Source: Eubacteriales bacterium (GTDB lineage: Bacteria; Bacillota; Clostridia; Oscillospirales; CAG-272). Taken from it: 36,083 bases of DNA. Made by a program: the position numbers and the translations under genes. Of this stretch, positions 1 to 36,083 are shown piece by piece. The stretch's first letter is position 1. Each line of letters begins with the position of its first letter. The notes beneath the pieces were generated by a model, which made no database searches, was not told the origin of the DNA, and worked only from the letters and a program-made list of their open reading frames with translations. The stretch spans positions 1-36,083 of the forward strand of contig JAZSDJ010000047.1 of NCBI GenBank assembly GCA_045531105.1, given 5' to 3'.

Positions 1-78
1 CCCAAAACTCATTCTTCGTTTCGGGGAACCCCTATCACGCGAACCCCCAAAACTCATTCTTCGTTTCGGGGAACCCCT
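1..78 (-). repeat. Two tandem copies (period 45 nt) of a GC-rich hairpin motif (ccccgaaac-N9-gttttgggg on the minus strand); a third copy lies at 9091-9129
   Basis: Direct reading: 1-33 and 40-78 are near-identical to each other and to 9091-9129. The 9-bp stem uses a G-U pair on the minus strand and would be an A-C mismatch on the plus strand. Confidence 0.7.
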
Positions 79-212
79 GTGCGACGGCAGACGATGGCTA
101 TCTTATGATAGTCGAGGTTAACAACGAGGAGTAACAGCGCAGGGTCCTCAAAGCGAACTTGCAGAGCTTTGGGGTTCCAAGCAGCGCATAACGCAGTTTA
201 TTCCTTTTGAAA

Positions 213-1380: not shown

Positions 1381-1750
1381 TGATGAATTGCGACAGAGTC
1401 GCGTTAATTCGTTTTTGATGAATTGCGAACAGAGTTCGCATGAATTGACACTTCGTGTCATGAATTGAGGCTGTCGCCTCATGAATTCTCGCACAATTAA
1501 GCTACACTTACTCGCGCTTGCTTAATATATATTTTAATAATCGCCTCAATTTTTATCTCTCCTTGTGCTCCATTATATGAACTCTATTGCACTCCGTTCA
1601 TAATCTAACCAACATGGAGAAAACGGAGTTTTCGAGAATTTATGGAGTGTTTGAAAAACATGAGAATTCATGGAGCATTCGCAGAATGCGAGAATTAATG
1701 CCGAAGGCAATTCATTAATATGCAATTCATTGAGCGAAGCGATTTATTGC
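1381..1750 (-). repeat. Composite intergenic repeat, copy A. Two inverted arrays of short hairpins spaced by a (C)ATGAATT(G) core flank a conserved core (ctccatgttggttag...tataat)
   Basis: ATGAATT occurs at 1383, 1418, 1440, 1460 and 1481 (about 21-nt phasing), separated by variable palindromes. The complementary AATTCAT array lies at 1636-1740. The core at 1560-1616 matches copies at 5230-5300, 9240-9670, 31280-31326 and 36000-36075. Confidence 0.75.
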
Positions 1751-1893: not shown

Positions 1894-2469
1894 TCAGTAT
1901 GTTGGGCTATCAAGTCGCCATTCTCCTAAATCCTTATTGTAAGTAACAACCACCTCAATATCGAATGGCTCTTCACCTTCTTCTATTATGGCAGGGAGTG
2001 TGGCGATAATTTCGTTTCTTTTGATTTTTTCTATTTTGATTTTTGTTGTGTCGTATTTATACACTTTTTTTACGGAGTTTTCGTAGTTTACATTAACTGT
2101 AAGATAACCTGTGTCGCCTACTATGTATCTTGCGTAGATTGGAACTCCCATGTTTTGAGTTCCTGAAAAATACATGTTTATCATATCGTCAGCCATACGC
2201 TTTGAAAAAACCGCTTTTGTTTCTACCAAGAGGTCGTTTCTAACTTTGTATGATGCGTCTTCTCTGACATAGTAATAGTCGCCTGTATAGTGGTTTTCCA
2301 TATCAGCGGGTAATCCGTCACCATAATAAACCTGATTGAGCGAATACGAACGGTCAACAAGGTCTTTTACGATATCAAGCGCCTCATTTTCACCGTCAAC
2401 TCGCGCACAGGAACAAAATGTTCCCGTGGCAAGCAAAAGAGTGAGCGCTAATAGTAATATTTTTTTCAT
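1894..2469 (-). CDS. Putative lipoprotein of unknown function
   Basis: 191-aa ORF. The N-terminal signal peptide MKKILLLALTLLLATGTFCSC has a Cys-containing lipobox-like end. Its ATG spans 2467-2469, so it overlaps the gyrA stop codon (2469-2471) by one base. Confidence 0.7.
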   Translation of the reverse strand: MKKILLLALTLLLATGTFCSCARVDGENEALDIVKDLVDRSYSLNQVYYGDGLPADMENHYTGDYYYVREDASYKVRNDLLVETKAVFSKRMADDMINMYFSGTQNMGVPIYARYIVGDTGYLTVNVNYENSVKKVYKYDTTKIKIEKIKRNEIIATLPAIIEEGEEPFDIEVVVTYNKDLGEWRLDSPTY

Positions 2470-5042
2470 TATTCAGCATCCTCTGGGGTGCTTGGTGCAT
2501 CAGTTACAGGGGCAGATGTGTCAATATTTTCAGCATTTTGTGCGTTTTCGTTATCTACTATCTCTGTTGCCTCTGCGTTTTCTGTTACCTCTTCGTCCTC
2601 ATCGACTGCGTCGGTAAAGGTCATTTTTGCAACCTTTGTTCCATCTGCAATACGCATTACGCGCACGCCTGATGCGCTTCTATTATAAACAGGAACTTCA
2701 CTAACAGGAGTTCTTATAACAACACCTGCGTCGGTAATTGCCATAATATCTTCGCTTTCGTCAACTGCGCCGATTGTCGCAAGTTTTCCTGTCTTATCGG
2801 TTACATTGTGTGCGCGAACACCGAAGATACCACGATTTCTTGGCTCGAAGTCGCTAAATTCGCTTCTCTTACCAAATCCGTTTTCAGTTACTGTCAAAAG
2901 TTTCTTTGTTTCGTCAACGATAACCGCTCCACAAACTACATCATCGCCACGAAGTTCAATACCACGAACACCGCGAGCGGTTCTACCAACGATAGATACT
3001 TTGTCTTCTGTAAAGCGAACGCCTTGTCCGTTCTTTGATGCGATAATAATGTCGCTATCTCCCTTAGTGTGTCCAACAAAGATAAGTTCGTCGCCTTCGT
3101 CAAGGTTGATTGCAATCTTACCGCCCTTGCGTTGATATTCGTATTCCTTAACTCTTGTGCGTTTAATTACGCCCTTGCGAGTTACCATTACGAGATATTC
3201 ATTTTCCTCAAATCCTTCAAGCGCCACCATTGCGGTTACTTTTTCGCCCTTTTCAATCTCGATTATATTGATAAGGTTAGCGCCCTTAGCGGTTCTTGAA
3301 CTTTCAGGAATTCTATATACCTTTCTTACGAAAATCTTACCATTATCGGTAAACATAAGAAGGTGTGAGTGTGAATTTGCAACGAGAATGTTCTCAATAA
3401 AGTCCTCGTCCTTTGTTCCCATTGCCACAAGACCTTTACCTCCACGGTGTTGAGCCTCGTATGTGTCAGCGGGTATTCTCTTAATATAGCCTGAATTTGT
3501 AAGAGTGATTACGCACTCATGGCGCTCAATAAGGTCTTCAAGGTCGATTTCGTCGTCGCTGTCGATAATCTCTGTGCGTCTTTCGTCTGCGTATTTTCTC
3601 TTGATTTCTTCAAGTTCTGTTTTGATGATTTCTTTAATCTTGTTTTCGTCAGCCAAAATCGCTGTGAGTTCTGCAATAGTTGCGTGAAGTTTTGCAAGAC
3701 GCTCCTCAACCTTTTGTCTTTCCATTCCAGACAAACGGCCAAGTGTCATTTCTACAATCGCTTGTGATTGCTCCTCGGAGAGCAAGAACCTTTCTCTGAG
3801 TTTCTCTTTCGCTACCGCTGTGCTTTCACTTCCACGAATGATTGAAATTACCTCGTCGATATTGTCAATCGCTATCTTATAACCCTCGTAAATGTGAGCC
3901 TCCGCTTGCGCTTTTTTGAGGTCAAAACGAGTTCTACGCTGAACGATTTCTTCTTGATATTTGATATATTCCTTCAAGATTTCACGAAGTCCAAGTGTCT
4001 TTGGCTCGCCATTTACCAAAACGAGCATATTCATAGCACAAGTGTCTTGAAGTTGTGTGTTTTTGTAAAGTTGGTTAAGAATTACTTGAAGGTTCGCGTC
4101 GCGACGGCACTCAATTACAATTCTCATTCCCGCACGACCACTCTCGTCGCGAATACCCGTAAGTCCTTCTACCTTTTTGTCTTTGTGAAGTTCCGCTATT
4201 TTTTCAATAAGTTGTGACTTGTTTACCATATATGGTATTTCTGTTACAACTATTCTGTGTTCTTCTTCCTCGCATACTGCCTTTGAACGAACGCTTACTC
4301 TGCCCTTTCCTGTGGTATATGCGTCGATAATTCCGCGTTTTCCGTAAATTGTTGCATAGGTTGGGAAGTCTGGACCTTTTATGTATTCCATCATTTCCTC
4401 AACGCTCGCGTCGGGATTATCAATTAAGTGAATTGTTCCGTCAATTACCTCGCCAAGGTTGTGAGGTGGAATGTTTGTCGCCATACCTACGGCAATACCT
4501 ACGCTTCCGTTTACCAAAACATTTGGGAAACGAGATGGAAGTACAGTTGGCTCTTTACGGCTGTTGTCAAAGTTTGGAACGAAGTCAACAACATCTTTTT
4601 CAATGTCAGCCATAAGTTCGTTTGCAAGTTTTGACATTCTCGCCTCTGTATAACGATATGCAGCGGCGCCGTCACCATCAACGTTACCAAAGTTTCCGTG
4701 TCCGTCAATGAGTGGGTGACGAAGTGAGAATGGTTGAGCCATTCTTACAAGCGTTCCATATACCGCTTGGTCTCCGTGTGGATGGTATCTACCAAGCACG
4801 TTACCGACGGTTGTCGCTGATTTTCTAAATGGTTTGTCCGAGGTCAAGTGGTCCTCGTACATAGCGTACATTACACGTCTTTGTCCAGGTTTCATTCCGT
4901 CCCTGACATCAGGCAACGCACGCGATACAATTACGCTCATTGAGTATTCAAGAAACGCTTCTTTTACTCTTGACTCAATATTGCGATTTACTATCATCTG
5001 CTCAATATTTTCATAATCAAGCACATTGTGTTCTTTTTCCAT
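2469..5042 (-). CDS. gyrA: DNA gyrase subunit A
   Basis: 857-aa ORF with SVIVSRALPDVRDGMKPGQRRV, the catalytic AAAYRYTEARM motif, C-terminal beta-pinwheel repeats and an acidic tail. AAGGAG lies before the ATG. Confidence 0.97.
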   Translation of the reverse strand: MEKEHNVLDYENIEQMIVNRNIESRVKEAFLEYSMSVIVSRALPDVRDGMKPGQRRVMYAMYEDHLTSDKPFRKSATTVGNVLGRYHPHGDQAVYGTLVRMAQPFSLRHPLIDGHGNFGNVDGDGAAAYRYTEARMSKLANELMADIEKDVVDFVPNFDNSRKEPTVLPSRFPNVLVNGSVGIAVGMATNIPPHNLGEVIDGTIHLIDNPDASVEEMMEYIKGPDFPTYATIYGKRGIIDAYTTGKGRVSVRSKAVCEEEEHRIVVTEIPYMVNKSQLIEKIAELHKDKKVEGLTGIRDESGRAGMRIVIECRRDANLQVILNQLYKNTQLQDTCAMNMLVLVNGEPKTLGLREILKEYIKYQEEIVQRRTRFDLKKAQAEAHIYEGYKIAIDNIDEVISIIRGSESTAVAKEKLRERFLLSEEQSQAIVEMTLGRLSGMERQKVEERLAKLHATIAELTAILADENKIKEIIKTELEEIKRKYADERRTEIIDSDDEIDLEDLIERHECVITLTNSGYIKRIPADTYEAQHRGGKGLVAMGTKDEDFIENILVANSHSHLLMFTDNGKIFVRKVYRIPESSRTAKGANLINIIEIEKGEKVTAMVALEGFEENEYLVMVTRKGVIKRTRVKEYEYQRKGGKIAINLDEGDELIFVGHTKGDSDIIIASKNGQGVRFTEDKVSIVGRTARGVRGIELRGDDVVCGAVIVDETKKLLTVTENGFGKRSEFSDFEPRNRGIFGVRAHNVTDKTGKLATIGAVDESEDIMAITDAGVVIRTPVSEVPVYNRSASGVRVMRIADGTKVAKMTFTDAVDEDEEVTENAEATEIVDNENAQNAENIDTSAPVTDAPSTPEDAE

Positions 5043-5110
5043 TGTTTACTCCTTCTGATTTGCGAGTATATTTCTTCGTTTTGTGTCAAACTTTATTTTT
5101 AATTTAAGGT

Positions 5111-5379
5111 GATGAATTGCACACTTTGTGTGCATTAATTCTCGAACGCGTTGCGTTCTGCGACTCGCTTTGCTCGCGTGCATATCTTCCACCAGCCAAT
5201 CGCGCTTCGTCTCAACTCGCGTTCTTGGGGTGTCACCTACATTGTATCAACTCTATTACACTTTTCTCGTTCGTAATCTAACCAACATGGAGCGAGTGGA
5301 ACGAGCGAGAATTCATGAGGCTTTGCCTCAATTCATGAACGCTTGCGTTCAATTCATGGAGCAAAGCGAGAATTAATTG
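5111..5379 (-). repeat. Composite intergenic repeat, copy B (between gyrB and gyrA)
   Basis: AATTCAT/AATTAAT cores sit at 5310, 5330, 5351 and 5371 (20-21-nt phasing). The terminal inverted sequences are gcattaattctcg (5143-5155) and cgagaattaatt (5367-5378). The core at 5230-5300 is near-identical to 35960-36075. Confidence 0.75.
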
Positions 5380-5391
5380 TTCGTTGAAAAT

Positions 5392-7431
<2,040 letters not shown>

Positions 7432-7607
7432 TCAAAAAGAAAAGTTGTAAAATTAATTAGTATGAATCAACGGACGAGTGTCCGAGGCAAGTGGTGAGCC
7501 ACCGCGAGCAACCTTCGTATTAATTCCACACTTACTCGCCACTACATATTTTTATTATATCAATTAAAAACGGACAAAACGGACAACTTTTTAAAAGTGG
7601 CAAATTT

Positions 7608-7850
7608 TTATATTTTTGTTAGCCCTGCAAGAATAGTGCTTACATTGTGTTCAGCCAAATAAATTGTTCCGTCTTTCATTATTACAAATGATTTTGGCAA
7701 GTCATAGCCAAGAGTTACTACTCTGCCGTTTTTTTGTGCTTTATTTAAATACGCGCGCGTATGCGTAGATACTGTCGCCGTGTCAAGGTCAAATATCGCC
7801 TCAACTTCACACGAGCGAACGTTTTTATTACTTCCTAAATATAAATACAT
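7608..7850 (-). CDS. remB: DUF370-family protein (RemB/YaaB-like)
   Basis: 80-aa ORF starting MYLYLG. Size and position between recF and gyrB match Bacillus yaaB/remB. Confidence 0.75.
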   Translation of the reverse strand: MYLYLGSNKNVRSCEVEAIFDLDTATVSTHTRAYLNKAQKNGRVVTLGYDLPKSFVIMKDGTIYLAEHNVSTILAGLTKI

Positions 7851-7878: not shown

Positions 7879-9033
7879 CTATTCCTCGCCTTTCTCCTCC
7901 ACTTTAATTTCTTCCTCACCAAAACAGTTTTTTTCACACCTTTTTCCGTCTTGAAGATAAATAAAGGTTGTTTCCTCTTGTGTGAAATAGTTTGGTTCGC
8001 ACGAGGTTATTATAACTTGTCTATTATTGATGTTTGAAAGGACATATTTGCGTCTTGACACATCAAGTTCTGAAAGAACATCGTCAAGCAAGAATACAGG
8101 GTACTCTCCTGTATGCTCTTTGCTTATCTCGCCCTCTGCCATTTTCATTGCCAAGGCAAGCGAGCGTTGCTGTCCTTGCGATGCATAAAGCCTTGCATCT
8201 TTTCCGTTTAGTTCTATTTTTAAGTCGTCTTTGTGTATTCCATACACTGTCGCTCCATATCTTATCTCTCTTTCAAGATTTTCTGTCAGAAGTACAGCGT
8301 ATCTGTTTTTGAGTGTTTCTCGCGAAGAAAAATCCTCGCCTTGTGCGTTGGTTTCGTATGTGATTTTCGGAACTTCGCGCCCGTCTGTCATTTGAGAGAA
8401 AAATTCCTTTACCCAAAAGTCGAGTTTCTTTACATATTCGTTCCTTGCATCCGCTATGTCTGCACAAATTGATGCAAGTTCGCTCGAATAAAAGTCTATC
8501 GTTTCTCTGTATTGAGCCCTCTCGACCTCGTCCATTTTGAGTATTGCATTTCGCGAACTCATTACACTGTTATATCTCGTCATTAATTTGATATATACAG
8601 GCTTTAATTGGCTTATCGCTACATCTAAAAATCCCCTTCTCACACTCGGTGAGTCGCTTATAATTCCAAGATGCGATGGGCAAAATAGCACGGAACGAAA
8701 TTCGCCAATAATATCTGCCGTCTTTTGTACCTTTGAACCGTTTTTGTAAAACGCCTTCGGGCCAGAACGCGATATTTCAACGCCTATCTTCTCGCTCGCT
8801 CCTCGCTTTTCATATTCCATAAGCGAATACGCAACATTTTTGTCAAAGCGTATGAGTTCTTTGTCTTTGAGCGCACGAAAACTCTTTCCACGCGCAAATA
8901 AGTATATCGCCTCTATTATGTTCGTCTTGCCTTGCGCGTTGCGCCCGCATATTACATTCACCGTCGGCGAAAACTCTATTCTCTCTTTTTCTATATTTCT
9001 AAATTCTGTTAATTCTATGTTTTTTACAATCAT
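7879..9033 (-). CDS. recF: DNA replication/repair protein RecF
   Basis: 384-aa ORF with the Walker A GRNAQGKTN, the SMC-like signature SQGQQRSLALA and the Walker B FLLDDVLSELD. Confidence 0.95.
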   Translation of the reverse strand: MIVKNIELTEFRNIEKERIEFSPTVNVICGRNAQGKTNIIEAIYLFARGKSFRALKDKELIRFDKNVAYSLMEYEKRGASEKIGVEISRSGPKAFYKNGSKVQKTADIIGEFRSVLFCPSHLGIISDSPSVRRGFLDVAISQLKPVYIKLMTRYNSVMSSRNAILKMDEVERAQYRETIDFYSSELASICADIADARNEYVKKLDFWVKEFFSQMTDGREVPKITYETNAQGEDFSSRETLKNRYAVLLTENLEREIRYGATVYGIHKDDLKIELNGKDARLYASQGQQRSLALAMKMAEGEISKEHTGEYPVFLLDDVLSELDVSRRKYVLSNINNRQVIITSCEPNYFTQEETTFIYLQDGKRCEKNCFGEEEIKVEEKGEE

Positions 9034-9057
9034 ATAAATACAAGTTGCGTCTGTGAA

Positions 9058-9748
9058 GCGTTAATTCTTTTTTGATGAATTGCGCACACGCGAACCCCCA
9101 AAACTCATTCTTCGTTTCGGGGAACCCCTGAGCGTTGGCGCATTAATTCTCGAACGCGTTGCGTTCTCCATAAATTCTCAAACACTGCGTGTTTTCCATG
9201 AATTCTCACGCACATTTCAGCAAACTTAATTGTTTAACTCCTTGTGCGTTCCATTGTATGAACGCTATTACACTTAGAATTAATTATTTTTTGCTGTATT
9301 AATAGACGCTATCAATATTTTTCTTATTTTGCTATTTTTAGAAAATAAATCTCTATAAATGTTGTCTGAAATATTTCCTGTTTCCTTTAAAATATCAAGC
9401 CAATACCCAGTTTCGTGATTTTCTTTTAATGTAATTTTTAATTTGTTACAAAAATCTGCCTTGCTACTTGCATAATTTGCTTCGTGAATATTCGCTCCTA
9501 TACTTGTTCCGCTCCTCATTAGTTGAACTGCGATACTTTTTATTTTATTGTTTTCTTGCAAATTTACTGATAAATTTAAAATATCTATTGCAAATTCCTT
9601 AGATAATTTTAATAAAATATTATCCTTCATTTTTTAATCCTTTTCTATCTAATATGGAGCGAGTGGAACGAGCGAGAATTCATGAGGCAACAGCCTTAAT
9701 TCACGAACGCTTGCGTTCAATTTATGGAGCAAAGCGAGAATTAATCAT
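9058..9748 (-). repeat. Composite intergenic repeat, copy C, interrupted by and carrying the four-helix-bundle ORF
   Basis: The left arm at 9058-9279 (gcgttaattc..gatgaattg..., core ...cattgtatgaacgctattacac) and the right arm at 9640-9748 (ctaatatggagcgagtggaacgagcgagaattcatgagg...) are collinear with copy B. ORF 9280-9630 replaces the 16-nt centre. Confidence 0.75.
9280..9630 (-). CDS. Four-helix-bundle protein (23S rRNA intervening-sequence protein / Avd-like family)
   Basis: 116-aa ORF with the family-typical QLMRSGTSIGANIHEA...ADF..KL.I..KE..ET.YWL pattern. Confidence 0.85.
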   Translation of the reverse strand: MKDNILLKLSKEFAIDILNLSVNLQENNKIKSIAVQLMRSGTSIGANIHEANYASSKADFCNKLKITLKENHETGYWLDILKETGNISDNIYRDLFSKNSKIRKILIASINTAKNN

Positions 9749-9774
9749 GAATAACTAATTTTGCTTTACCAAAA

Positions 9775-10920
9775 TTAGTTATTCATTCTAAGTGGCATCA
9801 CAAAATATTTATATGTCGCATCGCTCTTGTCCTGTGGCTCAATAAGTACGCCGTGGAGAGGGTTATTATACGACATTTTGATTTCTCCGTCGTCTATTAC
9901 TTTGAGTGCGTCAAGCATAAATTTACAGTTAAATCCGATTACCATTCCTTCGTCGGTTTCTTTTCTTATTTGAATTGTGTCAAATGCGTTTCCATTTGAA
10001 CTTATTGTTGACACCAAAAGGTTGTCTTCAACTGTGAATTTTACATATGAACGAATACTTCCCGCTAAACGGTCCTCTACTATGAGCGAACTTCTTTCAA
10101 GCGCTCCACGAAGCGCTGAGGCGTCAAGATATGTTACTACCTTGTGTGATGTTGGAAGTATTCTGTTATAGTCGATATACTCGGAGTCAATCGTCTTTGA
10201 GAAGAACATATATGTTCCAAATTTGAAAATGATATATCTTCTTGTAAGTCTTATCTCTAATGCATCTTCTGTGTCTTTTGTCATTTTGAGTATGTCAGAA
10301 AGTGTTCTTCCTGGTACGATGAATTTGAGATTGAGATTTACAAGGTCTTTGCTCCTGTTTTCAAGTTTGATTTCCTTTTCACAGTATGCAAGTCTGTTTC
10401 CGTCACACGCAACTATTAACATATTGTTGTCGGTGATTTTAAAGTACGCTCCGTTAAATACAGGACGAGCGTCGTTTTGTCCTATCGCAAAGTATATTCT
10501 GTTTACAAATTTTCTGAATAAATATTGTGGTATCATAAATCCTCTCTCTCCATATATTTCTGGAAGAGGTGGGAATTGGTCGCCAGGTAATGCCTTTATA
10601 TCAAAGTGCGAAAGTCCTGACTCTATTCTCGCTGAAAATTTGTCGTCAACACTTACTTTTATGTCGCCAGCGGGCATTACTTTCAATATTTGAAGAAGTT
10701 TGTTCGCGTTGATTACTACATCGCCTTCTTCTTCTACTCTCGCTACTATTGAGGTTCTAAAACCTTTTTCCATGTCTTGTGTCTCAATTACTACCTTGCC
10801 GTCTTCTGTGCATACAAGGTGTACGCCTTCGAGATTTGCCATTGTGTTCTTTCCCGCTACTGTGTAAAGCGCTGGGGTCAATCCATTCATTAATGTGTCT
10901 CTGTCAAAAATTACTACCAT
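9775..10920 (-). CDS. dnaN: DNA polymerase III beta sliding clamp
   Basis: 381-aa ORF of the expected length, positioned directly after dnaA, ending in the clamp-like C-terminus ...KYFVMPLRMN. Confidence 0.93.
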   Translation of the reverse strand: MVVIFDRDTLMNGLTPALYTVAGKNTMANLEGVHLVCTEDGKVVIETQDMEKGFRTSIVARVEEEGDVVINANKLLQILKVMPAGDIKVSVDDKFSARIESGLSHFDIKALPGDQFPPLPEIYGERGFMIPQYLFRKFVNRIYFAIGQNDARPVFNGAYFKITDNNMLIVACDGNRLAYCEKEIKLENRSKDLVNLNLKFIVPGRTLSDILKMTKDTEDALEIRLTRRYIIFKFGTYMFFSKTIDSEYIDYNRILPTSHKVVTYLDASALRGALERSSLIVEDRLAGSIRSYVKFTVEDNLLVSTISSNGNAFDTIQIRKETDEGMVIGFNCKFMLDALKVIDDGEIKMSYNNPLHGVLIEPQDKSDATYKYFVMPLRMNN

Positions 10921-11172
10921 ATTTACTCCTGTCTCTTACTTTTTCTTTGCTGAAAAGAAAAAGTAAGCAAAAAGAAAAGTTATAAATTAATTTCTATTAT
11001 TTTAAAATTACCGCTAAACTAACACTAGTCTGCCACCCGAGGCTCTCGGGCCCGTGGGGGCTTCCCCACCTGAAAATAAAAAGATACCAAAAAGAAAAGT
11101 TATAAATTAATTTTCTATTATTTTAAAATTACTGCTAAACAAACACCAGTTTGCCTGTCGGGGATTCCCCGA
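10921..11172 (-). repeat. Leader/spacer repeat module, two consecutive copies (10921-11050 and 11078-11172), directly upstream of dnaN
   Basis: 10921-11050 is near-identical to 13133-13268, which lies upstream of dnaA. It contains a perfect 14-bp hairpin (10935-10967) 4 nt from the dnaN SD. Confidence 0.8.
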
Positions 11173-13132: not shown

Positions 13133-13268
13133 TTTTTACTCCTGTCTCTTACTTTTTCTTTGCTGAAAAGAAAAAGTAAGCAAAAAGAAAAGTTATAAAT
13201 TAATTTTCTATTATTTTAAAATTACTGCTAAACTAACACCAGTTTGCCACCCGAGGCGCTCGGGCGCG
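13133..13268 (-). repeat. Leader/spacer repeat module upstream of dnaA
   Basis: Near-identical to 10921-11050. The perfect 14-bp hairpin at 13148-13180 lies next to the SD (aggag). Confidence 0.8.
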
Positions 13269-13387: not shown

Positions 13388-13620
13388 GACGGACTCGGTG
13401 CGGACTCGGTGCGGACCGAGAGCCAATCTCCGCATTTGTCTCATATAGTTGCTTAATTAACCTCGAAGCAATATAATTAAACGGACAATCTCGGTGCGGA
13501 CTCGGTGCGGACCGAGAGCTAAACTCCGCATTTGTTTCTCGTTAATTGTTCAACCAATCACGAAAAACTCGGTGTGAAACCAGAGGCAAGTTGTGCGTTT
13601 ATTTTGTATTGATTTTTTAA
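13388..13620 (-). repeat. Repeat family 3 (ggctctcggtccgcaccgag... / ttaattatattgcttcgaggttaattaagcaa units), inverted orientation
   Basis: The reverse complement of 13388-13620 is collinear with 32243-32530 and 33443-33530. Confidence 0.75.
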
Positions 13621-15277: not shown

Positions 15278-15345
15278 CTTACTTTTCTGTACTTTTTCTT
15301 TGCTGAAAAGAAAAAGTAAGCAAAAAGAAAAGTAATAAAATAACT
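15278..15345 (-). repeat. Partial leader module with the same hairpin, upstream of the FGGY kinase gene
   Basis: The string tactttttctttgctgaaaagaaaaagtaagcaaaaagaaaagt matches the dnaA and dnaN leaders. Confidence 0.7.
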
Positions 15346-15447
15346 ATATACTAAAATTTTGGTTAAAAGCCACTTATATTTTATCATATAAATAAAGGTA
15401 TTTCAAGAATAATAATATAAAGAAAAAATAAAAATTTAAAAAATATC

Positions 15448-20452: not shown

Positions 20453-21358
20453 TTATTTTTTCTTATAAACATATTTTGGACGACTGTTTTTTGTTATAAG
20501 TCCCGCTGCGCGAGAAAAACCATCGTCGGTAAATTCCGAAAGGTAGGTTTTTATTATTTCGTACCCTGCTTCTTCCTCGTTTGTTAAGTAGTCGGAGTCA
20601 ATTTCGCGGGTTATTTGTTTGAGCAGTTTTTGTCTGTCGGCATCTGGGTTTTGAGCGATAAGAACTGAGAGCGCGTCATCAACTGCGAGAAACGCATTTG
20701 TAAGATAATCTGACACAACCATACCATTTGTGTCATTTTCGTCAAGCAACGCCATAACCTCTAAAAGTTCTTCTATTGCGATAGTGACATTTGACGAGGT
20801 GACTGAATTATAACCGAGTTTTCCGTCGTCAAGTGTGAGAACATGGAATCTTCTTTTCAAAATCCTGTTCATAAGAAGCGCTCCCTCTTTCGTGTCAAGT
20901 CCGAGAGAGTCTTTGTAGTTGTCGTTTATGTAGTTGTTGTCGTGAACTCTGAATTTGTTGTTGTAAAGTTCAATATAAATCTTCGGCACGGATTTAGTTG
21001 GCTTTGAAAGGTCGAGAATGTACGCGTTTTCACCATTTGAGGTGATTTTACCACCAAAAGAGATAGAAAGTTCCTTCAAAATATTAACTTCTTGTTGTTG
21101 AAGTTCTTCGGGTGAAAATCTACGCCCACTTAACCACCTTTCAAACGCCGAAGTCTTTGCCTCTGTGATAGTTTTAAGGGGTGTTTGATACTTATATGTC
21201 ACGCCATCTTCGGAGATTGATGCCTTCTCTTGCTTTTCGAGTTTTTTTACAAACTCTCTTGCTTCCATATAAGAAAGGTCAAAATCTTTTTGCAAAGATG
21301 CGACGGAAAAAGAACCTTTTTCTTCAAGAGATTTATAAATTTCAGGGTATTTACTCAT
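20453..21358 (-). CDS. Protein with an N-terminal FtsK-gamma-like winged-helix domain; the rest is uncharacterised
   Basis: FSVASLQKDFDLSYMEAREFVKKLEKQ resembles the FtsK gamma motif (S.S.LQR.F.IGY.RA.R..D.LE). The preferred start MSKYPE (ATG at 21358) overlaps the upstream stop as ATGAGTAA. Confidence 0.6.
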   Translation of the reverse strand: MSKYPEIYKSLEEKGSFSVASLQKDFDLSYMEAREFVKKLEKQEKASISEDGVTYKYQTPLKTITEAKTSAFERWLSGRRFSPEELQQQEVNILKELSISFGGKITSNGENAYILDLSKPTKSVPKIYIELYNNKFRVHDNNYINDNYKDSLGLDTKEGALLMNRILKRRFHVLTLDDGKLGYNSVTSSNVTIAIEELLEVMALLDENDTNGMVVSDYLTNAFLAVDDALSVLIAQNPDADRQKLLKQITREIDSDYLTNEEEAGYEIIKTYLSEFTDDGFSRAAGLITKNSRPKYVYKKK

Positions 21359-23033
21359 CGTCATCATTCCTTTCGGTGACTTGATATACATATCGTCTGT
21401 CGTAAGGATTTATTTTCGACTTGTATTCTTTATCGTTTTTCTTTTCAATATCGTGGAACTCTGGACACATATACGAGCGTTCGAGTTTCGACCAGAAAGC
21501 GTATGGCTTATTAAGTTCGATAATTACACACTCCCCAGCCTTAAAACTTGAAAGGTCGGTTCTTGTAACAACAGGAATTGTTTCGAGTTCAAAACGAGAA
21601 AGTTCTGCGTCATTACCACTCAAAACTGATTTTGGAGAAAGGCGTGTATATTCGCCACATTCAGCCTGAAAACGAGTGAGAGTGTCTGGGTTGTTGCTTC
21701 CTAAAAAGATTTTGATATTGAGGTTATCTCTTATAATTTCAGCAGTGTTTTTGCCGTAGATGTTGTCAAGTTGTGAATACGACTGCAAAATACAGTAGAA
21801 GAAAATGTTTCTTCCACGGGCCGCGGTTATCGCTGTGTCAAAGTCGGTGATAGGTGGGAAGTTACCAAATTCGTCAAGCATGAAGTAAAACGGGGTGTCA
21901 AGTTTTGACTTTTCGCTCTTGTTTGCAACTTCGATAAGATACTTATACGCATTTTGAACAAAAAGGCTGATAAGTTGGTAATGTGTCTTAATTTCGTCTT
22001 GATAGCAGATGAAAACTGCCACTTTTCCACCAAGAAGTTCGGAAAAATCGAAGGAATTACAACTTGTTATGGTTTGAATTGTTATATTTCTAAAAATAGA
22101 AAGTTTTGTTTGGAAAACGGAAGTATAGGAACTTCTTGTAACCTTTGAGCAGTCCATCGCTGTACGCGAGAGCATAAATGCGTTGCTACTTCTGTCGCGA
22201 TTTTCAAAATAACCATTGTCAACATCAGAGTCGCCCATAGGGTCAAATGTTGCAAAAATGCGGAAGAGTGTGCGAAGTGAGAATGTGTCCTCGGTGATTG
22301 TCGCCTCTTTTTTGCCTCTTGGTCTACTGTCTTCGAGCATAGCCCACAAAAACGCTTTAAGAAGGTCGAGTGCGCCACTGTCCCAACTTCGGTCCTTTGG
22401 ATTGTCAAAGGTTATCATCATTGACGCGAGTTCGTCAATCATATTTCCGACTTTGCTCATCTCTGTGTCGAAAATTATATTGACATCGTTGTCAAGGTCA
22501 GTTTGATTTTCGTAAATTCTGCCCCTGAACATATTGCGAGGACCTTTTGGAGTGTCTATTACTTCTATTTTGTCATAGATTTTGAAAACCTCGTGATATG
22601 CCCTATAAATAGGGGTGAGAGGGTTCCAAAATTCACTGTGTTCAGGGTCACGGAAGTTGAGAAGATAAACACTGTACCCCTCATCTTCAAGCGTTTTCGC
22701 TGTCTTTTTATAAATTTCACCCTTTGGGTCGGAGATAACAAAACTTTTCTTTGTCTGTTGCTTTGCAAAAGAAAGAACGGTAGGAATTACGCAAGAGGTC
22801 GTTTTACCACCACCTGTCGCTGAAATTATAAGCGCATGTGATGCGTAATCGGAATAAATTTGCATAAGTTTGCCATTAATATATTGATTCGAGAGCAAAA
22901 TACCGTCTATTGTGAGATTAGGCAAATCGTCATAAGCCACCATTTTTGGCAAAGTGGACACAGGGTCGTCATATCTTTTGAGTTCTTTGCTTTCGTAGCC
23001 TTGCAAAAGGCTTTTGTTGCTGAAAATGTTCAT
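21351..23033 (-). CDS. VirD4/TraG/TraD-family (T4SS coupling-protein-type) ATPase lacking N-terminal transmembrane helices
   Basis: Walker A ISATGGGKTTSCVIPTVL, then SDPKGE, FWNPL, the Walker B FYFMLDEFGNFPPI and RGRNIFFYCILQSYSQLDNIYG. The Walker A starts near residue 73, and the preceding 70 residues contain no hydrophobic segment. Confidence 0.85.
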   Translation of the reverse strand: MNIFSNKSLLQGYESKELKRYDDPVSTLPKMVAYDDLPNLTIDGILLSNQYINGKLMQIYSDYASHALIISATGGGKTTSCVIPTVLSFAKQQTKKSFVISDPKGEIYKKTAKTLEDEGYSVYLLNFRDPEHSEFWNPLTPIYRAYHEVFKIYDKIEVIDTPKGPRNMFRGRIYENQTDLDNDVNIIFDTEMSKVGNMIDELASMMITFDNPKDRSWDSGALDLLKAFLWAMLEDSRPRGKKEATITEDTFSLRTLFRIFATFDPMGDSDVDNGYFENRDRSSNAFMLSRTAMDCSKVTRSSYTSVFQTKLSIFRNITIQTITSCNSFDFSELLGGKVAVFICYQDEIKTHYQLISLFVQNAYKYLIEVANKSEKSKLDTPFYFMLDEFGNFPPITDFDTAITAARGRNIFFYCILQSYSQLDNIYGKNTAEIIRDNLNIKIFLGSNNPDTLTRFQAECGEYTRLSPKSVLSGNDAELSRFELETIPVVTRTDLSSFKAGECVIIELNKPYAFWSKLERSYMCPEFHDIEKKNDKEYKSKINPYDRRYVYQVTERNDDDE

Positions 23034-26572: not shown

Positions 26573-27433
26573 ATGAAAAAGGAAGGGAAAAAGAAAGAGA
26601 AAATGAACATTTACTACCAAAAACCGATTGAAAAAAGCGAAAATGAGCAAATTTTCTCGGTTGAAATCAGCAAGATAAGGGCAAATCCCAACCAACCACG
26701 CAAGGTTTTTGCTGATGAGGCGATACTGAAATTGGCAGATAGCATTCGCCAATATGGTATAATTCAGCCATTATGCGTGAGAAAAACGGGCGAAAGTTAC
26801 GAACTTGTGTCAGGAGAACGCAGATTAAGAGCGGCAAAAGAACTCGGAATGAGCGCTGTTCCGTGCGTGATACTTGATATAAACGAGGTAAAAAGCGCCG
26901 AAATTTCAATAATTGAAAACATAATTCGAGAAAATTTGAACATTTTCGAGCAAGCGAGCGCGATAGAAACACTTATTGATACATATGGTCTGACACAAGA
27001 ACAAATAGCGAAAAAATTGTCAAATAGCCAGTCCTTTATCGCAAACAAGTTGAGATTGTTGCGCTTATCGAGCGAAGAAAGGCAAAAAATACTTGAAAAC
27101 AACCTTACAGAGCGACACGCAAGGGCGCTTTTGCGTATATTAGACCCTTCTCTGCGTGAAAAAACGCTCAGTAAAATCATAGAAGAAGGGTTAAATGTGA
27201 CTAAAAGTGAGGAGTTTATCGATCAACTGCTCGCAAATGAGCCGAAAAAGACAAGGGGTCGCTCGTCTTCCTTAAAAGACACTCGTTCGTTTTTTGCATC
27301 AATAGATAGGCTTGTAAATACTATAAGAATGTCTGGCGTTGAAGTAAAAAGTAGGGTTATAGAGAGTGACGAGTTCACGGAAGTCACTATTTTAGTGCCA
27401 AATGTGGCAGATACCTCTCCGAAAAGCGAATAA
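26573..27433 (+). CDS. ParB/Noc-family protein (noc-like paralog upstream of soj-spo0J)
   Basis: ParB N-terminal box NPNQPRK, IIQPLCVR, the CTPase motif GERRLRAA and an HTH (LTQEQIAKKLSNSQSFIANKLRLL). The start codon is uncertain (26573 or 26603). Confidence 0.85.
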   Translation: MKKEGKKKEKMNIYYQKPIEKSENEQIFSVEISKIRANPNQPRKVFADEAILKLADSIRQYGIIQPLCVRKTGESYELVSGERRLRAAKELGMSAVPCVILDINEVKSAEISIIENIIRENLNIFEQASAIETLIDTYGLTQEQIAKKLSNSQSFIANKLRLLRLSSEERQKILENNLTERHARALLRILDPSLREKTLSKIIEEGLNVTKSEEFIDQLLANEPKKTRGRSSSLKDTRSFFASIDRLVNTIRMSGVEVKSRVIESDEFTEVTILVPNVADTSPKSE

Positions 27434-27518
27434 AATGCGAAAAATACGCACAAAGCCCTAAAAATGGTGAGAAAAATCGCCAAAAAGAGAGGAAACGAGC
27501 AAAAACAACTAAAAAGAA

Positions 27519-27534
27519 TGTTTCACGTGAAACA
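27519..27534. promoter_or_regulatory. parS site (TGTTTCACGTGAAACA, perfect palindrome)
   Basis: Exact match to the Firmicute parS consensus TGTTNCACGTGAAACA. Confidence 0.9.
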
Positions 27535-27591
27535 TATGCCCCCCTTCTCGTCGTTGCGTTTTCGCCCAGAGAAGAAACGAGGTCGCAAAAA

Positions 27592-27607
27592 TGTTCCACG
27601 TGAAACA
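27592..27607. promoter_or_regulatory. parS site (TGTTCCACGTGAAACA)
   Basis: Matches the parS consensus, differing only at the degenerate position. Confidence 0.88.
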
Positions 27608-27632
27608 AAAGTTACCACATAATTCACTCAAA

Positions 27633-27648
27633 TGTTTCACGTGAAACA
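27633..27648. promoter_or_regulatory. parS site (TGTTTCACGTGAAACA)
   Basis: Exact palindromic parS. Confidence 0.9.
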
Positions 27649-27672
27649 AAAATACGACTGGTTTTGGGCGAA

Positions 27673-27688
27673 TGTTTCACGTGAAACA
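27673..27688. promoter_or_regulatory. parS site (TGTTTCACGTGAAACA)
   Basis: Exact palindromic parS. Confidence 0.9.
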
Positions 27689-27713
27689 GCGCAATTTTGC
27701 GAAAAATAAACAA

Positions 27714-29073: not shown

Positions 29074-29856
29074 ATGTCACAGGTTATATCTTTTGTTAAT
29101 CAAAAGGGTGGAGTTGGTAAGACAACTTCCGCTATCAATGCTGCGACTATGCTCTCGGTGCTTAAAAACAAGGTTCTTTTAATAGATTTAGATCCTCAGG
29201 GGAGTTCAACAAGTGGCGTTGGAATACAGAAAAATCAGACGCAGAACAACGCTTATGATGTTATTATTGGTGGTTGCGATATTCGTTCTGCGATTTTGAA
29301 AACTCGTTTTCCGAACTTGCATTTGCTTCCTGCAAATGTTGACTTGGCTGCCGCTGATTACGAACTTACCTCGCAAGACGGGCGCGAATTTTTCTTAAAG
29401 CGCCAACTTGAAAAATTGACGGGCGAATTTTATTATGATTACATAATTATCGACTGCCCGCCATCAATAGGGCTTTTAACGATTAACGCATTGAGTGCAA
29501 GTAACAGTTTAATAATACCACTTCAATGCGAATATTACGCGCTTGAAGGCTTGTCACAACTTATGATGACGGTCAAAAAGGTCAAGCAGTTATACAATCC
29601 AAAACTTTACATTCTTGGCATACTTGTTACAATGTATAGCCCGAGATTGAAACTCTGCACACAGGTGTTTGAGGAACTTAAAAAATACTACGAGGACAAA
29701 CTCTTTGACACGAAGATTTCACGCACGGTAAAACTTTGCGAGTGTCCGAGTTATGGAGAGCCTATATATTATTATGCAAGGTATTCAAAGCCGAGCCTTG
29801 AATATCTTGATTTAGCGAAAGAAATTATAAATCGAACAGGGGGATTTTTGATATGA
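29074..29856 (+). CDS. soj: ParA/Soj chromosome-partitioning ATPase
   Basis: Deviant Walker A NQKGGVGKTT, then LLIDLDPQGS and IIIDCPPS. The start MSQVISF at 29074 is preceded by GGGGGA, so the 12 upstream codons in the ORF track are probably not translated. Confidence 0.93.
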   Translation: MSQVISFVNQKGGVGKTTSAINAATMLSVLKNKVLLIDLDPQGSSTSGVGIQKNQTQNNAYDVIIGGCDIRSAILKTRFPNLHLLPANVDLAAADYELTSQDGREFFLKRQLEKLTGEFYYDYIIIDCPPSIGLLTINALSASNSLIIPLQCEYYALEGLSQLMMTVKKVKQLYNPKLYILGILVTMYSPRLKLCTQVFEELKKYYEDKLFDTKISRTVKLCECPSYGEPIYYYARYSKPSLEYLDLAKEIINRTGGFLI

Positions 29857-30737
29857 AAAAAACAGGACTTGGAAAAGGACTTGAATCAATTTTTGCAGAC
29901 AATTATACAGAGAAGGTCGCAAAAAACGAGGGCGTAAACAAAATTAAACTCTCTCAAATTGAAACAAAAAGCGACCAACCGAGAAAATATTTTGACACAG
30001 ATGCGCTTGAAACCTTGGCAGACTCTATTGCTCAACACGGACTTTTGCAACCTATTCTCGTTCGCAAGGTGGAGAGTGGCTTTTATCAGATAATCGCAGG
30101 CGAACGCAGATACAGGGCTTCAAAAATGGCAGGACTTACAGAAATCCCTGTTGTTATAATTGAGGCAGATGAACTCAAAACGGCAGAACTCGCTATCGTT
30201 GAAAATGTTCAAAGAGAGGACCTCAATCCTTATGAAGAAGCGCAAGCGTATGCGTCACTTATGGACGATTTTGATTTGACACAAGAGCAGGTTAGCGAAA
30301 AGGTTGGCAAATCCCGTAGTGCGATTGCAAACACACTTCGCCTTCTTGAATTGCCCGAGGAAGTTCTTGAAATGCTTAAAACGGGAGATATCAGTGCAGG
30401 TCACGCAAGAGCGCTCCTTGCCCTCAAAAACAAGGAAGAAATCGTTGATACAGCGCAAAAAATTCTCATTCGTTCACTTAGCGTAAGAGATACAGAGGCG
30501 CTTGTAAAGAAACTCAACAGAGTTGTTGAAATTATTGACGGAATTGAAGAAACCGAGATTGTTGTTGACTATGTAAAGGACCTCGAAAACAGAGCGAGAA
30601 CTCTTATTGGTAGACAAGTAAAAATCAAAGCGAAGGGCAAGTCGAAGTCTGTTCAAATTGAGTTTACAGACAACGAGGACCTTGAAGAAATTTTGGTTAA
30701 ACTTTGTGGCAAGAAAATCATTGAGGGAGTTCTATGA
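29853..30737 (+). CDS. spo0J: ParB/Spo0J chromosome-partitioning protein
   Basis: GLGKGLESIF, SDQPRK, LLQPILVR, GERRYRAS and an HTH (LTQEQVSEKVGKSRSAIANTLRLL). Its ATG overlaps the soj stop as ATGA. Confidence 0.93.
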   Translation: MKKTGLGKGLESIFADNYTEKVAKNEGVNKIKLSQIETKSDQPRKYFDTDALETLADSIAQHGLLQPILVRKVESGFYQIIAGERRYRASKMAGLTEIPVVIIEADELKTAELAIVENVQREDLNPYEEAQAYASLMDDFDLTQEQVSEKVGKSRSAIANTLRLLELPEEVLEMLKTGDISAGHARALLALKNKEEIVDTAQKILIRSLSVRDTEALVKKLNRVVEIIDGIEETEIVVDYVKDLENRARTLIGRQVKIKAKGKSKSVQIEFTDNEDLEEILVKLCGKKIIEGVL

Positions 30738-31201
30738 TTAGCCTTTTTTCGCAAAGTATAAGCCATAATATAACCACAGGGGTGCTTGTAATTGGATTTA
30801 CCATTGGCGCAATTCTTGCGTTTAGTGTGTACTTTTTCCAAACTCGTATACTCGGTTCACTCATTCGCGCATTACTTAAAGATGCGATAGGCGAGCAAAA
30901 TGCGAAAACTCTTGAACAAATTGAGAAAAATAACTTCTTTTTCAAGTTCTATTTAAGAGATGGCAGTATTCTTCGCAAATATATAAAGGTTGTTGGAGAT
31001 ACCGTTCCAAAAAACAACGAGGGGAAATACGATTTTTCATGCGCTCGATTTTATATCGACGAAGAAAAGGCACAAGTGGCTGAAATTCGCTATTCAAAGG
31101 AAACAAAAATTTGGATTTTCGTCCTTGGCGTTGTCGCTATTGCAGTAGTTGGCGCTGTGATGTATTTCGCATTGCCATATTTGCTTGATGCGATTAGATG
31201 A
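30734..31201 (+). CDS. Small membrane protein translationally coupled to spo0J (position typical of the DUF4446-type gene; family not verified)
   Basis: 155-aa ORF with N-terminal and C-terminal hydrophobic helices (GVLVIGFTIGAILAFSVYFF and IWIFVLGVVAIAVVGAVMYFAL). ATGA overlap with the parB stop. Confidence 0.6.
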   Translation: MISLFSQSISHNITTGVLVIGFTIGAILAFSVYFFQTRILGSLIRALLKDAIGEQNAKTLEQIEKNNFFFKFYLRDGSILRKYIKVVGDTVPKNNEGKYDFSCARFYIDEEKAQVAEIRYSKETKIWIFVLGVVAIAVVGAVMYFALPYLLDAIR

Positions 31202-31326
31202 TGAATTCTCGCTTCGCTCCATGAATTGAACGCAACGCGTTCATGAATTGAGGCAGAGCCTCACGAATTCTCGAAAACTCCGTTTTCTCCATGTTGGTTA
31301 GATTACGAACAAGGTAGATACAATTA
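31199..31326 (+). repeat. Composite intergenic repeat, copy D (short form), oriented toward mgsA
   Basis: gatgaattctcgcttcgctccatgaattgaacgcaacgcgttcatgaattgaggcagagcctcacgaattctcg...ctccatgttggttagattacgaac..tacaat is the reverse complement of copies A, B, C and E. Confidence 0.75.
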
Positions 31327-32231: not shown

Positions 32232-32334
32232 GGTGCTTTTTTATGCGAAGTGCGGAGAGCGAAAAGATAAATCAATACAAAATAAACGCGGAGATTGCCT
32301 CGGGCGCTCGTCCGTCGGTTCGAACCGAGTCTGC

Positions 32335-32526
32335 ACCGAGATTGCTCGTTTAATTATATTGCTTCGTGGTTAATTAAGCAACTATGCGAAACAAAGGCGG
32401 AGTTTGGCTCTCGGTCCGCACCGAGCGCGTACCGAGATTGTCCGTTTAATTATATTGCTTCGAGGTTAATTAAGCAATTATGCGAAACAAAGGCGGAGTT
32501 TGGCTCTCGGTCCGCACCGAGTGGTT
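32335..32526 (+). repeat. Two tandem 96-nt units of repeat family 3
   Basis: accgagattg[c/t][t/c]cgtttaattatattgcttcg[t/a]ggttaattaagcaa..tatgcgaaacaaaggcggagtttggctctcggtccgcaccgag starts at 32335 and again at 32431. Confidence 0.85.
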
Positions 32527-33441: not shown

Positions 33442-33592
33442 AATGCAAAATGCGGAGAGCGAAAAGATAAATCAATACAAAATAACCGCGTAATTTGGCT
33501 CTCGGTCCGCACCGAGTCCGTACCGAGCGCGAAAGGTTGCCTGTCGGGGCTTCCTTCTTTCTTCACTCTTTAATGTGGAGTTTGGCTCACCG

Positions 33593-35817: not shown

Positions 35818-36083
35818 TGATGAATTGCACACAGAGTGTGCATTAATTCTCGCCGACGGAGGTGCCGATTCCAAATTCCGCGTTCGCTTATAATAGACTT
35901 TTTATTTCTCCACGAAGCAATTTTGCTTTCGTTCGCGCTCTGCGACTCGCTTTGCTCGCATGCATATCTTCCACCAGCCAATCGCGCTTCGTCCCAACTC
36001 GCGCTTTTGGGGTGTCACCTACATTGTATGAACTCTATTACACCTTGTTCACACATCTAACCAACATGGAGCGAGTGGAACGA
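35818..36083 (-). repeat. Composite intergenic repeat, copy E (truncated by the window end), oriented toward ymdB
   Basis: gatgaattgcacacagagtgtgcattaattctcg... and 35940-36075 are near-identical to 5111-5300. Confidence 0.75.

Follow-up and report, generated by a model that had tools for sequence, protein, structure and literature searches.

The DNA analysed here, positions 1 to 36,083 of contig JAZSDJ010000047.1 from a Eubacteriales bacterium (hereafter the window), contains a gene for a four-helix-bundle protein in the spacer between dnaN and recF, flanked on both sides by arrays of short hairpins that are joined by a conserved linker. The pairing of this gene with such arrays is general and strong, and is not a one-off of the window. 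We favour, with a little better than even confidence, the interpretation that the locus is a recombinationally mobile cassette embedded in an operon and similar to the intervening sequences (IVSs) of 23S rRNA, with two arms that zip into a stem. On balance, the cassette also appears to represent a widespread and hitherto undescribed type of module, in which a four-helix-bundle gene is joined to hairpin arrays.

Association of the four-helix-bundle gene with hairpin arrays

A scan of metagenomes with an alignment of the protein yielded 80 Clostridia-type loci with homologues of 50–74% identity (numbered with the prefix L, as are the other relatives cited below). The linker ATGAATT, or its complement AATTCAT, occurs 7.7 times per kb within 300 nt of the 80 open reading frames (ORFs) and 0.28 times per kb in the remaining 225 kb, an enrichment of approximately 28-fold; inside the ORFs themselves the density is 0.45 per kb. 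With a generalised linker, at least two linker-plus-hairpin units are found beside the ORF in 76 of the 80 loci, and the other four are either cut by contig ends or display single scattered units only. Arrays are present in 39 of 64 intergenic gaps adjacent to the ORF and in 11 of 83 other gaps (Fisher p = 2e-9), and the odds ratio is conservative because several ORF-adjacent gaps are mislabelled as "other" among the 11. A literature search on the linker, the hairpin arrays, PF05635/S23p and BT0352 returned no earlier account of an association between arrays and PF05635 genes.

The linker generalises to RTGAWWT, and the hairpin to a perfect, G+C-rich stem of 4–7 bp. The type of linker depends on the lineage (TGAATT in 58 loci, TGATTT in 9, TGAAAT in 6), is matched on both sides of the ORF, and does not vary within one locus or one genome; arm-matched pairs that differ between lineages include AAATCAT/ATGATTT, ATTTCAT/ATGAAAT and AATTCAC/GTGAATA. 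The hairpins comprise 128 and 84 distinct sequences in the two orientations, with the linker alone being conserved. Each orientation has loops of its own (TTC, TGC and TGAC as against GAA, GCA and GTA), implying a single type of unit that is used in two orientations. Where the arms enclose the ORF, the first downstream linker often supplies the stop codon through its TGA, and the same kind of arms surrounds the ORF at loci other than that of the window.

The four-helix-bundle gene

The ORF encodes 116 amino acids from an ATG start codon, with AAAGGA located eight nucleotides upstream. The product matches the PF05635 profile with 79 bits against a cut-off of 33.8, and the alignment of residues 2–107 to a model of 106 positions identifies a full-length member of the family; TIGR02436 is matched with 88.3 bits (cut-off 24). 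The nearest solved structure is that of a Bacteroides protein with five chains (PDB code 2RLD; E = 5e-25 over residues 1–116, and 1e-37 with a profile). This close relative indicates the four-helix-bundle fold for the product, and the two profiles bear out the initial annotation, which had placed it in the 23S-IVS/Avd family, known at first from inserts in 23S rRNA. More than 7,900 homologues were found, mainly in Clostridia and in metagenome-assembled genomes (MAGs) of Oscillospiraceae, and an exact look-up of the product in the assembly index gave no match.

Between the ORF and its orthologue in L001, dN/dS is 0.13, and values for other pairs range from 0.05 to 0.34. The gene is under purifying selection and the protein is maintained, which argues that the protein is functional. 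To our knowledge, no catalytic or mobility activity has been described for the PF05635 family, and we know of no function assigned to the proteins encoded inside 23S rRNA IVSs since their discovery in the early 1990s. The initial annotation had also suggested that the ORF-bearing copy of the repeat is the autonomous or parental form. This proposal finds no support: the family has no such known activity, PADLOC and PHROGs searches with the ORF product gave no match, neither a transposase nor a target-site duplication was detected, and the composite lies wholly upstream of the ORF in most related loci.

Organization of the composite repeat

Repeat finding and a MAFFT alignment show that one composite repeat is present five times in the window (copies A to E; Table 1), four times without an ORF. 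The array unit consists of the linker ATGAATT, sometimes extended (TCCATGAATTCTC), and a short perfect hairpin, and one arm is the reverse complement of the other. The hairpin sequence varies from unit to unit (GAACGC..GCGTTC, GAGGC..GCCTC, GCACAC..GTGTGC and AAACAC..GTGTTT). Seven occurrences of the 13-mer GAGAATTYATGRA were counted where 0.35 would be expected. All five copies have one orientation relative to transcription, which is not significant (p about 0.06) and was not used.

In the ORF-bearing copy C, the arms align with those of other copies, as a proper alignment had to show for the initial annotation to hold. The arm 9644–9746, which is distal to the promoter, aligns nearly base for base with B, D and L001; positions 9249–9273, at the start of the other arm, align with A, B and E; and positions 9140–9171 align with B at 5137–5163. 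The linkers of the upstream arm are ATTAATT, AAATT, GTGAATT and ATGAATT. In the downstream arm, the junction hairpin is followed by hairpins AAACACGCAGTGTTT and GAACGCAACGCGTTC, each of which precedes GAGAATTYATGGA or GAGAATTAATG (motif matches at 9167–9179 and 9195–9207), and by a last hairpin, GCGC...GCGC, which leads into AATTCAT. The hairpin at the dnaN stop codon, the stem of which begins with a linker-like ATGAATA supplied by the final dnaN codons, was scored as terminator-like without a T tail, and is conserved in L001 and L105.

The centre of copy B lies between ...CTATTACAC, ending at 5261, and CTAACCAACATGGAG, starting at 5278. The matching interval of copy C, 9274–9648, spans 375 nt and contains the ribosome-binding site (RBS), the ORF and 6 nt more, so that the proposed replacement of the 16-nt centre of B by an ORF-bearing interval is confirmed. 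The collinearity claimed for the two copies is sustained at both ends, where they align, but not throughout. Copies B and E share a 112-nt segment (5153–5264 and 35935–36046; 94% identical) located just after the TACAAT junction that is absent from A and C, and may be another cargo or a small RNA; copy C has two additional hairpin units and a nested insert of 53 nt (9087–9139). The statement that the ORF runs in the same sense as the element has little meaning for a quasi-palindromic composite, and judged by its only asymmetric marker, GGAGCRAAGCGAG, the ORF runs antisense relative to most related modules.

The nested insert belongs to the repeat families D13 and D20, which have further copies in the window at 1–33, 46–78 and 36–88. 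Relatives L103 and L104 carry this repeat in their dnaN–recF and gyrB–gyrA spacers, instead of the ATGAATT composite. As a small repeat, CCCAAAACTCATTCTTCGTTTCGGGGAACCCCT (window 1–88 and 9087–9139; L103 10182–10285 and 17609–17711), it has a longer shared context downstream of recA.

No target-site duplication was seen at the edges of copy C or of the modules, and the arms are inverted repeats. The repeat does not fit repetitive extragenic palindromes (REPs) or bacterial interspersed mosaic elements (BIMEs), which have a conserved palindrome with a fixed flanking tetranucleotide and a RAYT gene: the palindrome sequence is not conserved here, and no HUH or RAYT gene is present in the window. 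A scan of a genome collection with the 17-mer CTCCATGTTGGTTAGAT returned 13 unrelated single matches, which were judged to be due to chance.

Predicted folding of the arms

The minimum free energy computed for RNA of the 751-nt region is −187 kcal/mol, compared with −143 ± 6 kcal/mol for shuffled sequences (z = −7). In the predicted fold, the linkers of the two arms pair with each other across the ORF, and the hairpins fold locally. The initial annotation is thus upheld in that the arms can close a stem around the ORF. The duplex between the two arms of copy C has an energy of −64.5 kcal/mol (shuffles, −45.9 ± 5.5 kcal/mol), and arm-to-arm duplex energies are far below those of shuffles in most loci tested.

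Variation at the site among relatives and movement of modules

Relatives were found through dnaN. In L101 and L102, with DnaN 90% identical to that of the window, and in L103 and L104 (89%), the dnaN–recF spacer contains no such ORF and lacks ATGAATT arms. The cassette is present in L001 (88%), where the upstream arm is the same and the protein is 72% identical. L105 and L106 (82%) carry a different cassette at the same site, with the composite-upstream layout and a protein of 54% identity. The related genomes with the ORF at this site, L001 and L105, have the repeat as well; the ORF alone would have spoken against the initial annotation. The gyrB–gyrA spacer of L101, at the site of copy B in the window, holds composites with the canonical Gut-1 linker TGAAAT, and that of L103 has none; no four-helix-bundle gene was found in 19 kb of L101 despite its arrays. 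These site differences imply that the arrays turn over rapidly, and that the dnaN–recF spacer has been colonised more than once or remodelled. The suggestion that the short copies are ORF-less derivatives stands in part: they are related to ORF-bearing copies, but the two closest relatives lack both ORF and arms at this site, rather than carrying an ORF-less derivative.

The upstream arm is 94.6% identical to that of L001 over 93 nt, and the hairpin at the dnaN stop codon together with this arm is approximately 92–95% identical, save for one unit that has been swapped wholesale. Synonymous differences between the window and L001 amount to 53% in dnaN and 63% in the ORF. Arm identity in spite of this divergence indicates that the arms are constrained or homogenised rather than neutral.

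Pairs of loci with unrelated flanks have nothing in common but a block of leader plus ORF, 403–561 nt long and 80–94% identical. The block measures 538–561 nt in the pairs L048/L049, L025/L031, L032/L034 and L041/L042, which are not cut by contig ends, and is also shared by L023/L081 and L030/L053. The block begins on the left with the array, in every case right after a hairpin, and ends on the right a few codons before the stop codon, so the flank supplies the C-terminal tail and the stop. In L054 (approximately 215 nt, including the RBS) and L036 the leader is duplicated on both sides of the ORF. Many modules follow a gene for a tRNA/rRNA uracil-5-methyltransferase, the last codons of which form the first hairpin (L002, 3800–3830); at the left edges of L048/L049 and L025/L031, copies elsewhere retain 26–40 nt of the 3' end of the methyltransferase gene, which marks the origin of the module.

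Inverted heptamers at Bacteroidaceae genes

Bacteroidaceae relatives and their loci were retrieved with the 2RLD sequence. The gene lies inside operons and is co-directional with its neighbours, as araD–four-helix-bundle gene–araA and as aminotransferase–four-helix-bundle gene–DAHP synthase, with (AATTGAC)n on its upstream side and (GTCAATT)n on its downstream side. Variant units in one arm have mirror counterparts in the other: AATGGAC, third upstream in L122, is opposite GTCCATT, the second downstream unit, and in L121 TTGACAGTT by the start is opposite AACTGTCAA by the stop. L107 (1935–2000 and 2352–2432) shows one variant compatible with G-U pairing, AGTTGAC opposite GTCAATT. The arms of L115, at the same araD–araA site, are entirely different and again complementary. 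The loci with inverted tandem heptamers at four-helix-bundle genes, in the arabinose operon and an aromatic amino-acid operon, are L107, L121, L122, L115 and L111. The arm duplex energies are well below those of shuffles, and an Rfam search of the Bacteroidaceae arms returned nothing.

A stem-enclosed cassette as the favoured explanation

The cassette is co-directional within the dnaA–dnaN–recF–gyrB–gyrA operon region, and would be read as part of the transcript of its neighbours. In the modelled RNA, the pairing of linkers across the ORF and the local folding of hairpins would produce a long, branched stem with the ORF in its loop, which is the topology of a 23S IVS. Such a stem would probably be cut by a double-strand-specific RNase of the RNase III type, thereby releasing or insulating a small mRNA and leaving structured ends on the dnaN and recF messages; cutting would explain how an insertion is tolerated in an essential operon. 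Avd, a small, basic and oligomeric protein, binds nucleic acid and functions together with structured RNA. By analogy with Avd and with the pentameric S23p, the protein may bind nucleic acid as an oligomer and so act on the repeats. In the DNA, the comparison of loci shows gain, loss and rearrangement of the module through recombination at the arrays; the ORF-less composites are these arrays without cargo.

Several observations weigh against a stem that encloses the gene and is processed as RNA. The duplex energy of copy C is only about 3.4 standard deviations below the shuffles, and one shuffle nearly equals it. The paired linker segments are 7–13 bp each and interrupted by junctions, which is not a classical RNase III substrate. 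Across 402 units the stems are 96–97% Watson–Crick, and G-T and A-C mismatches are equally rare; in the absence of a G-U excess the structure bears no mark of RNA rather than DNA, and the mismatches are too few for their asymmetry to discriminate between RNA and DNA or between strands. The mirrored variants of the Bacteroidaceae arms could be explained by conversion between arms. Arrays also occur without a nearby four-helix-bundle gene (copies A, B, D and E, and L101), and so lead a life of their own.

The commonest layout of the loci is a further such point. Units were called with a linker-anchored caller in the 59 loci that have 200 nt or more of flank on each side. The most frequent arrangement (28 loci) places the full composite upstream without enclosing the ORF (>>>> <<< RBS ORF). 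In favour of a stem around the gene, inverted arms surround the ORF in at least 21 of the 59 loci, as <<< ORF >>> in 18 and as >>> ORF <<<, the layout of the window, in 3; an array of one orientation is found upstream only in 4, and the same orientation on both sides in 3. Of the rest, L067 was scored as downstream-only, and L097 and L099 as having no array because aberrant linkers hide it. By eye, L067 and L080 also show the layout of the window.

A broader proposal is possible, and is put forward tentatively. PF05635 genes would be the cargo of stem-enclosed cassettes across phyla, "intervening sequences of mRNAs" that insert in operon spacers and occasionally in 23S rRNA, and the pentameric protein would recognise the units in order to control processing, expression or spread. 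Hairpin units of the Gut-1 type would form the arms in Clostridia, and plain heptamers those in Bacteroidaceae and Coxiella. The rRNA IVSs look like one case of a wider kind of cassette. If this is true, the orphan Gut-1 motif and the 30-year-old IVS ORF share one explanation, and two puzzling observations become one testable system, in which a protein family is systematically joined to Gut-1-like or heptamer arrays in operons of abundant gut and rumen bacteria. Cassettes in essential or metabolic operons (dnaN–recF, araD–araA) may alter operon expression and confuse annotation.

Alternative explanations

The alternative that survives best, though we consider it unlikely, is that the protein binds the linker/hairpin units as operators, with adjoining arrays serving autoregulation and ORF-less arrays serving as targets in trans, which would constitute a small post-transcriptional or DNA-binding regulon. 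The tight linkage in cis (76 of 80 loci) is consistent with this, as are arms conserved far above the neutral rate and linkers that differ between lineages and are uniform within a locus and genome; co-inheritance in one module, however, accounts for the correlation of linker and protein without recognition. Nucleic acid binding by Avd, which has the same fold, would also fit if it extends to stand-alone members of the family. The arrays typically have 3–5 units, and solved members of the family are homopentamers (2RLD, five chains; Xanthomonas S23p, PMC4990558). The arrays of L101, with no four-helix-bundle gene in 19 kb, argue against a regulon of this kind.

Slightly more doubtful is a mobile repeat that acts at the DNA level, akin to miniature inverted-repeat transposable elements (MITEs), REP/BIME or BOX, the arrays being sites for a transposase or RAYT enzyme encoded elsewhere and the gene a passenger. 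This explanation partly overlaps the favoured one and may be complementary to it. Near-perfect palindromes without a G-U bias, sharp module edges between unrelated flanks, the swapping of entire units between copies, modules that begin right after a pre-existing hairpin, and the density of ORF-less copies in the window are all in its favour. The linkers are genome-specific, being TGAATT in the window and TGAAAT in the 90% relative L101 in the same gyrB–gyrA spacer, which suggests family turnover or concerted evolution; on the other hand, the linker is retained across very diverse metagenomic lineages. A transposase, HUH or RAYT gene was found neither in the window nor in the inspected loci, target-site duplications were not seen, and the hairpins vary around a conserved linker, unlike REPs. 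An ORF that is almost never without arrays and is under purifying selection is hard to reconcile with a random passenger.

A chance neighbourhood, in which an ordinary small gene happens to lie beside repeats or terminators common to the spacers of these genomes, could draw on the four ORF-less copies in the same 36 kb and on the weak terminator-like hairpin after dnaN, but is very improbable in the face of the 28-fold enrichment of the linker, the intergenic control (p = 2e-9), the frequent supply of the stop codon by the first linker, and the analogous architecture in another phylum. Least credible of all is a remnant or component of a diversity-generating retroelement (DGR) with the ORF as its Avd accessory gene: Avd shares the fold and the Pfam family (PMC10053308), but no ORF of 100 amino acids or more in the 36-kb window contains a reverse transcriptase domain, reverse transcriptases are absent from the gene tables of related loci, and the repeats detected include no template/variable pair, direct repeats being intergenic.

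Other features of the window

The window represents the replication-origin region of a low-G+C genome of the Clostridia type; its closest protein relatives come from MAGs labelled Clostridia, Ruminococcaceae or Oscillospiraceae. Searches of it found no rRNA and no domain of a reverse transcriptase or a transposase, and Rfam at the gathering score returned only a tRNA for the whole window, with no family for the repeats. The main features are listed in Table 1.

Table 1. Genes, repeat copies and elements of the ORF-bearing copy in the window (positions in nucleotides).
Feature	Position	Strand	Remarks
recA	213–1325	minus	
Gene without assigned function	1894–2469	minus	
gyrA	2469–5042	minus	
gyrB	5392–7377	minus	
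RemA-like gene	7608–7850	minus	
recF	7879–9033	minus	
Four-helix-bundle ORF	9280–9630	minus	
dnaN	9775–10920	minus	
dnaA	11753–13132	minus	
Copy A, ORF-less	1383–1730		between recA and the gene 1894–2469; left array of four or five ATGAATT-plus-hairpin units
Copy B, ORF-less	5110–5377		between gyrB and gyrA; 16-nt centre 5262–5277 where C holds the ORF
Copy C, ORF-bearing	9058–9748		between dnaN and recF
Copy D, half composite, inverted orientation	31198–31313		directly 5' of the MGS-like gene at 31349
Copy E, ORF-less	35818–36083		upstream of ymdB; cut by the end of the window
17-bp A+T-rich hairpin	9747–9786	minus	extends over the dnaN stop codon; the array begins with it
Upstream arm of C (in the sense of the ORF)	9644–9746	minus	four units, CTCGCTTTGCTCC, GAACGCAAGCGTTC, AAGGCTGTTGCCTC and CTCGCTCGTTCCACTCGCTCC; arm ends with CTCCATATTAGATAGA
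RBS AAAGGA and spacer	9631–9643	minus	directly 5' of the ATG; read from the sequence
Downstream arm of C (in the sense of the ORF)	9058–9279	minus	conserved junction GTGTAATAGCGTTCATACAATGG first, then CGCACA...TGTGCG hairpin with AAGGAG in its loop
Nested insert CACGCGAACCCCCAAAACTCATTCTTCGTTTCGGGGAACCCCTG	9087–9139		different small repeat of 53 nt in the loop of the last downstream-arm hairpin

A promoter-like site, TTCACA-17-TATGAT with 10 of 12 matches, is located on the minus strand at 9029–9057, at the outer limit of the downstream arm and immediately ahead of recF; expression of recF may therefore be independent of read-through from the cassette. The conserved TACAAT centre was also considered as part of a sigma-70 promoter, an idea that was dropped, as the consensus scan found none there and only the site at 9057–9029.

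A family of polypyrimidine/polypurine hairpins, CTTACTTTTTCTTTGCTGAAAAGAAAAAGTAAG with an A+T-rich tail, occurs at 7403–7466, 10937–11000, 11057–11120, 13150–13213 and 15290–15353, immediately 5' of the start codons of gyrB, dnaN, dnaA and an FGGY kinase gene. Similar hairpins precede recF and gyrA in L101 and L105, and the family may be a common leader or promoter-proximal element. A third family of intergenic repeats (CTCGGTGCGGAC...) comprises, at 32315–32506, 13394–13538 and 33475–33527, a 96-nt tandem duplication and its inverted copies 19 kb away at 89–92% identity. Four copies of the parS-like palindrome TGTTTCACGTGAAACA are located at 27516–27691, between two ParB-family genes (26573–27433 and 29853–30737). 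Near dnaA, a gene for a TraG/VirD4-like type IV secretion coupling protein (21351–23033) is accompanied by several ORFs without a family; the same gene is present in L105 (2351–4048), and seems to belong to the remnant of a conjugative element fixed near the origin.

Comparison with known systems

In Bacillus subtilis, the slot between dnaN and recF is occupied by the S4-like yaaA gene, in the order dnaA–dnaN–X–recF–remB–gyrB–gyrA. The four-helix-bundle gene lies in the same slot, as the initial annotation pointed out, but the resemblance is positional only: the proteins are unrelated, with Pfam giving PF05635 alone and no S4 domain match, and the slot is gene-free in the closest relatives L101 and L103.

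The REP/BIME elements of enterobacteria, the BOX elements of pneumococci and MITEs such as Correia are modules of hairpin units with terminal modules able to pair, and are found in both orientations and in many copies per genome in transcribed operon spacers. The arrays share these features. They differ from such families in that the hairpin is variable and the linker conserved, in that neither a RAYT or transposase gene nor a target duplication was seen, and in that a specific protein gene is attached in most loci, which is not known as a trait of REP, BOX or MITE families. In contrast to avd in a DGR, the gene of the window is accompanied by neither a reverse transcriptase nor template/variable repeats.

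Gut-1 (RF01706) is a non-coding RNA candidate from 2010, known from human gut metagenomes only (PMC2864571), and the literature searched gave no link between it and any protein gene. The left array of copy A (1416–1492) scores 32.1 bits (E 2e-4; cut-off 50) with its model, of consensus "hairpin-RUGAAAU-hairpin", and copy C gave no match to the covariance model at E ≤ 5. L051 carries true Gut-1 arrays with ATGATAT linkers (51–54 bits) as well as ATGAATT arrays (37 bits). By sequence comparison, the arms of the window thus appear to be a sub-threshold relative of this orphan motif. Common to both are short G+C-rich hairpins joined by a conserved linker of the RUGAAAU type, and an origin in gut metagenomes and uncultivated Clostridia-like bacteria. 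The window differs in its AUGAAUU linker and in scores below the cut-off, and its arrays form inverted composites tied to a protein gene, unlike the free-standing non-coding RNA that was proposed for Gut-1. The true Gut-1 matches of L051 are three in tandem, on alternating strands, between a glycolytic-type gene and a tRNA (6122–6430), and its four-helix-bundle gene is surrounded by very long ATGAATT arrays and five tandem GGAGCGAAGCGAGAATTCAT units.

The closest parallel is the 23S IVS, as known from Coxiella burnetii (helix 45), Leptospira, Brucella and Xanthomonas. The PF05635 family, the orientation of the ORF in the sense of the host transcript, its location (here predicted) in the loop of an inverted-repeat stem, and a patchy phylogenetic distribution that suggests horizontal movement (PMC4990558) are shared. 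In Coxiella, an IVS that encodes S23p and is closed by inverted repeats is cut out by RNase III, and short tandem heptamers lie ahead of its ORF, a further point of resemblance; the Xanthomonas S23p is described as a pentameric toroid (PMC4990558). The Coxiella ORF decays and loses its Shine–Dalgarno sequence on excision (PMC4990558), whereas purifying selection acts on that of the window, which has a strong RBS. The cassette of the window also lies in a spacer between protein-coding genes, outside helix 25/45 and any rRNA, and its arms are arrays of linkers and hairpins rather than a simple stem. What appears to be new is the presence of an S23p-bearing, stem-closed insert in mRNA spacers, with arms of the Gut-1 type.

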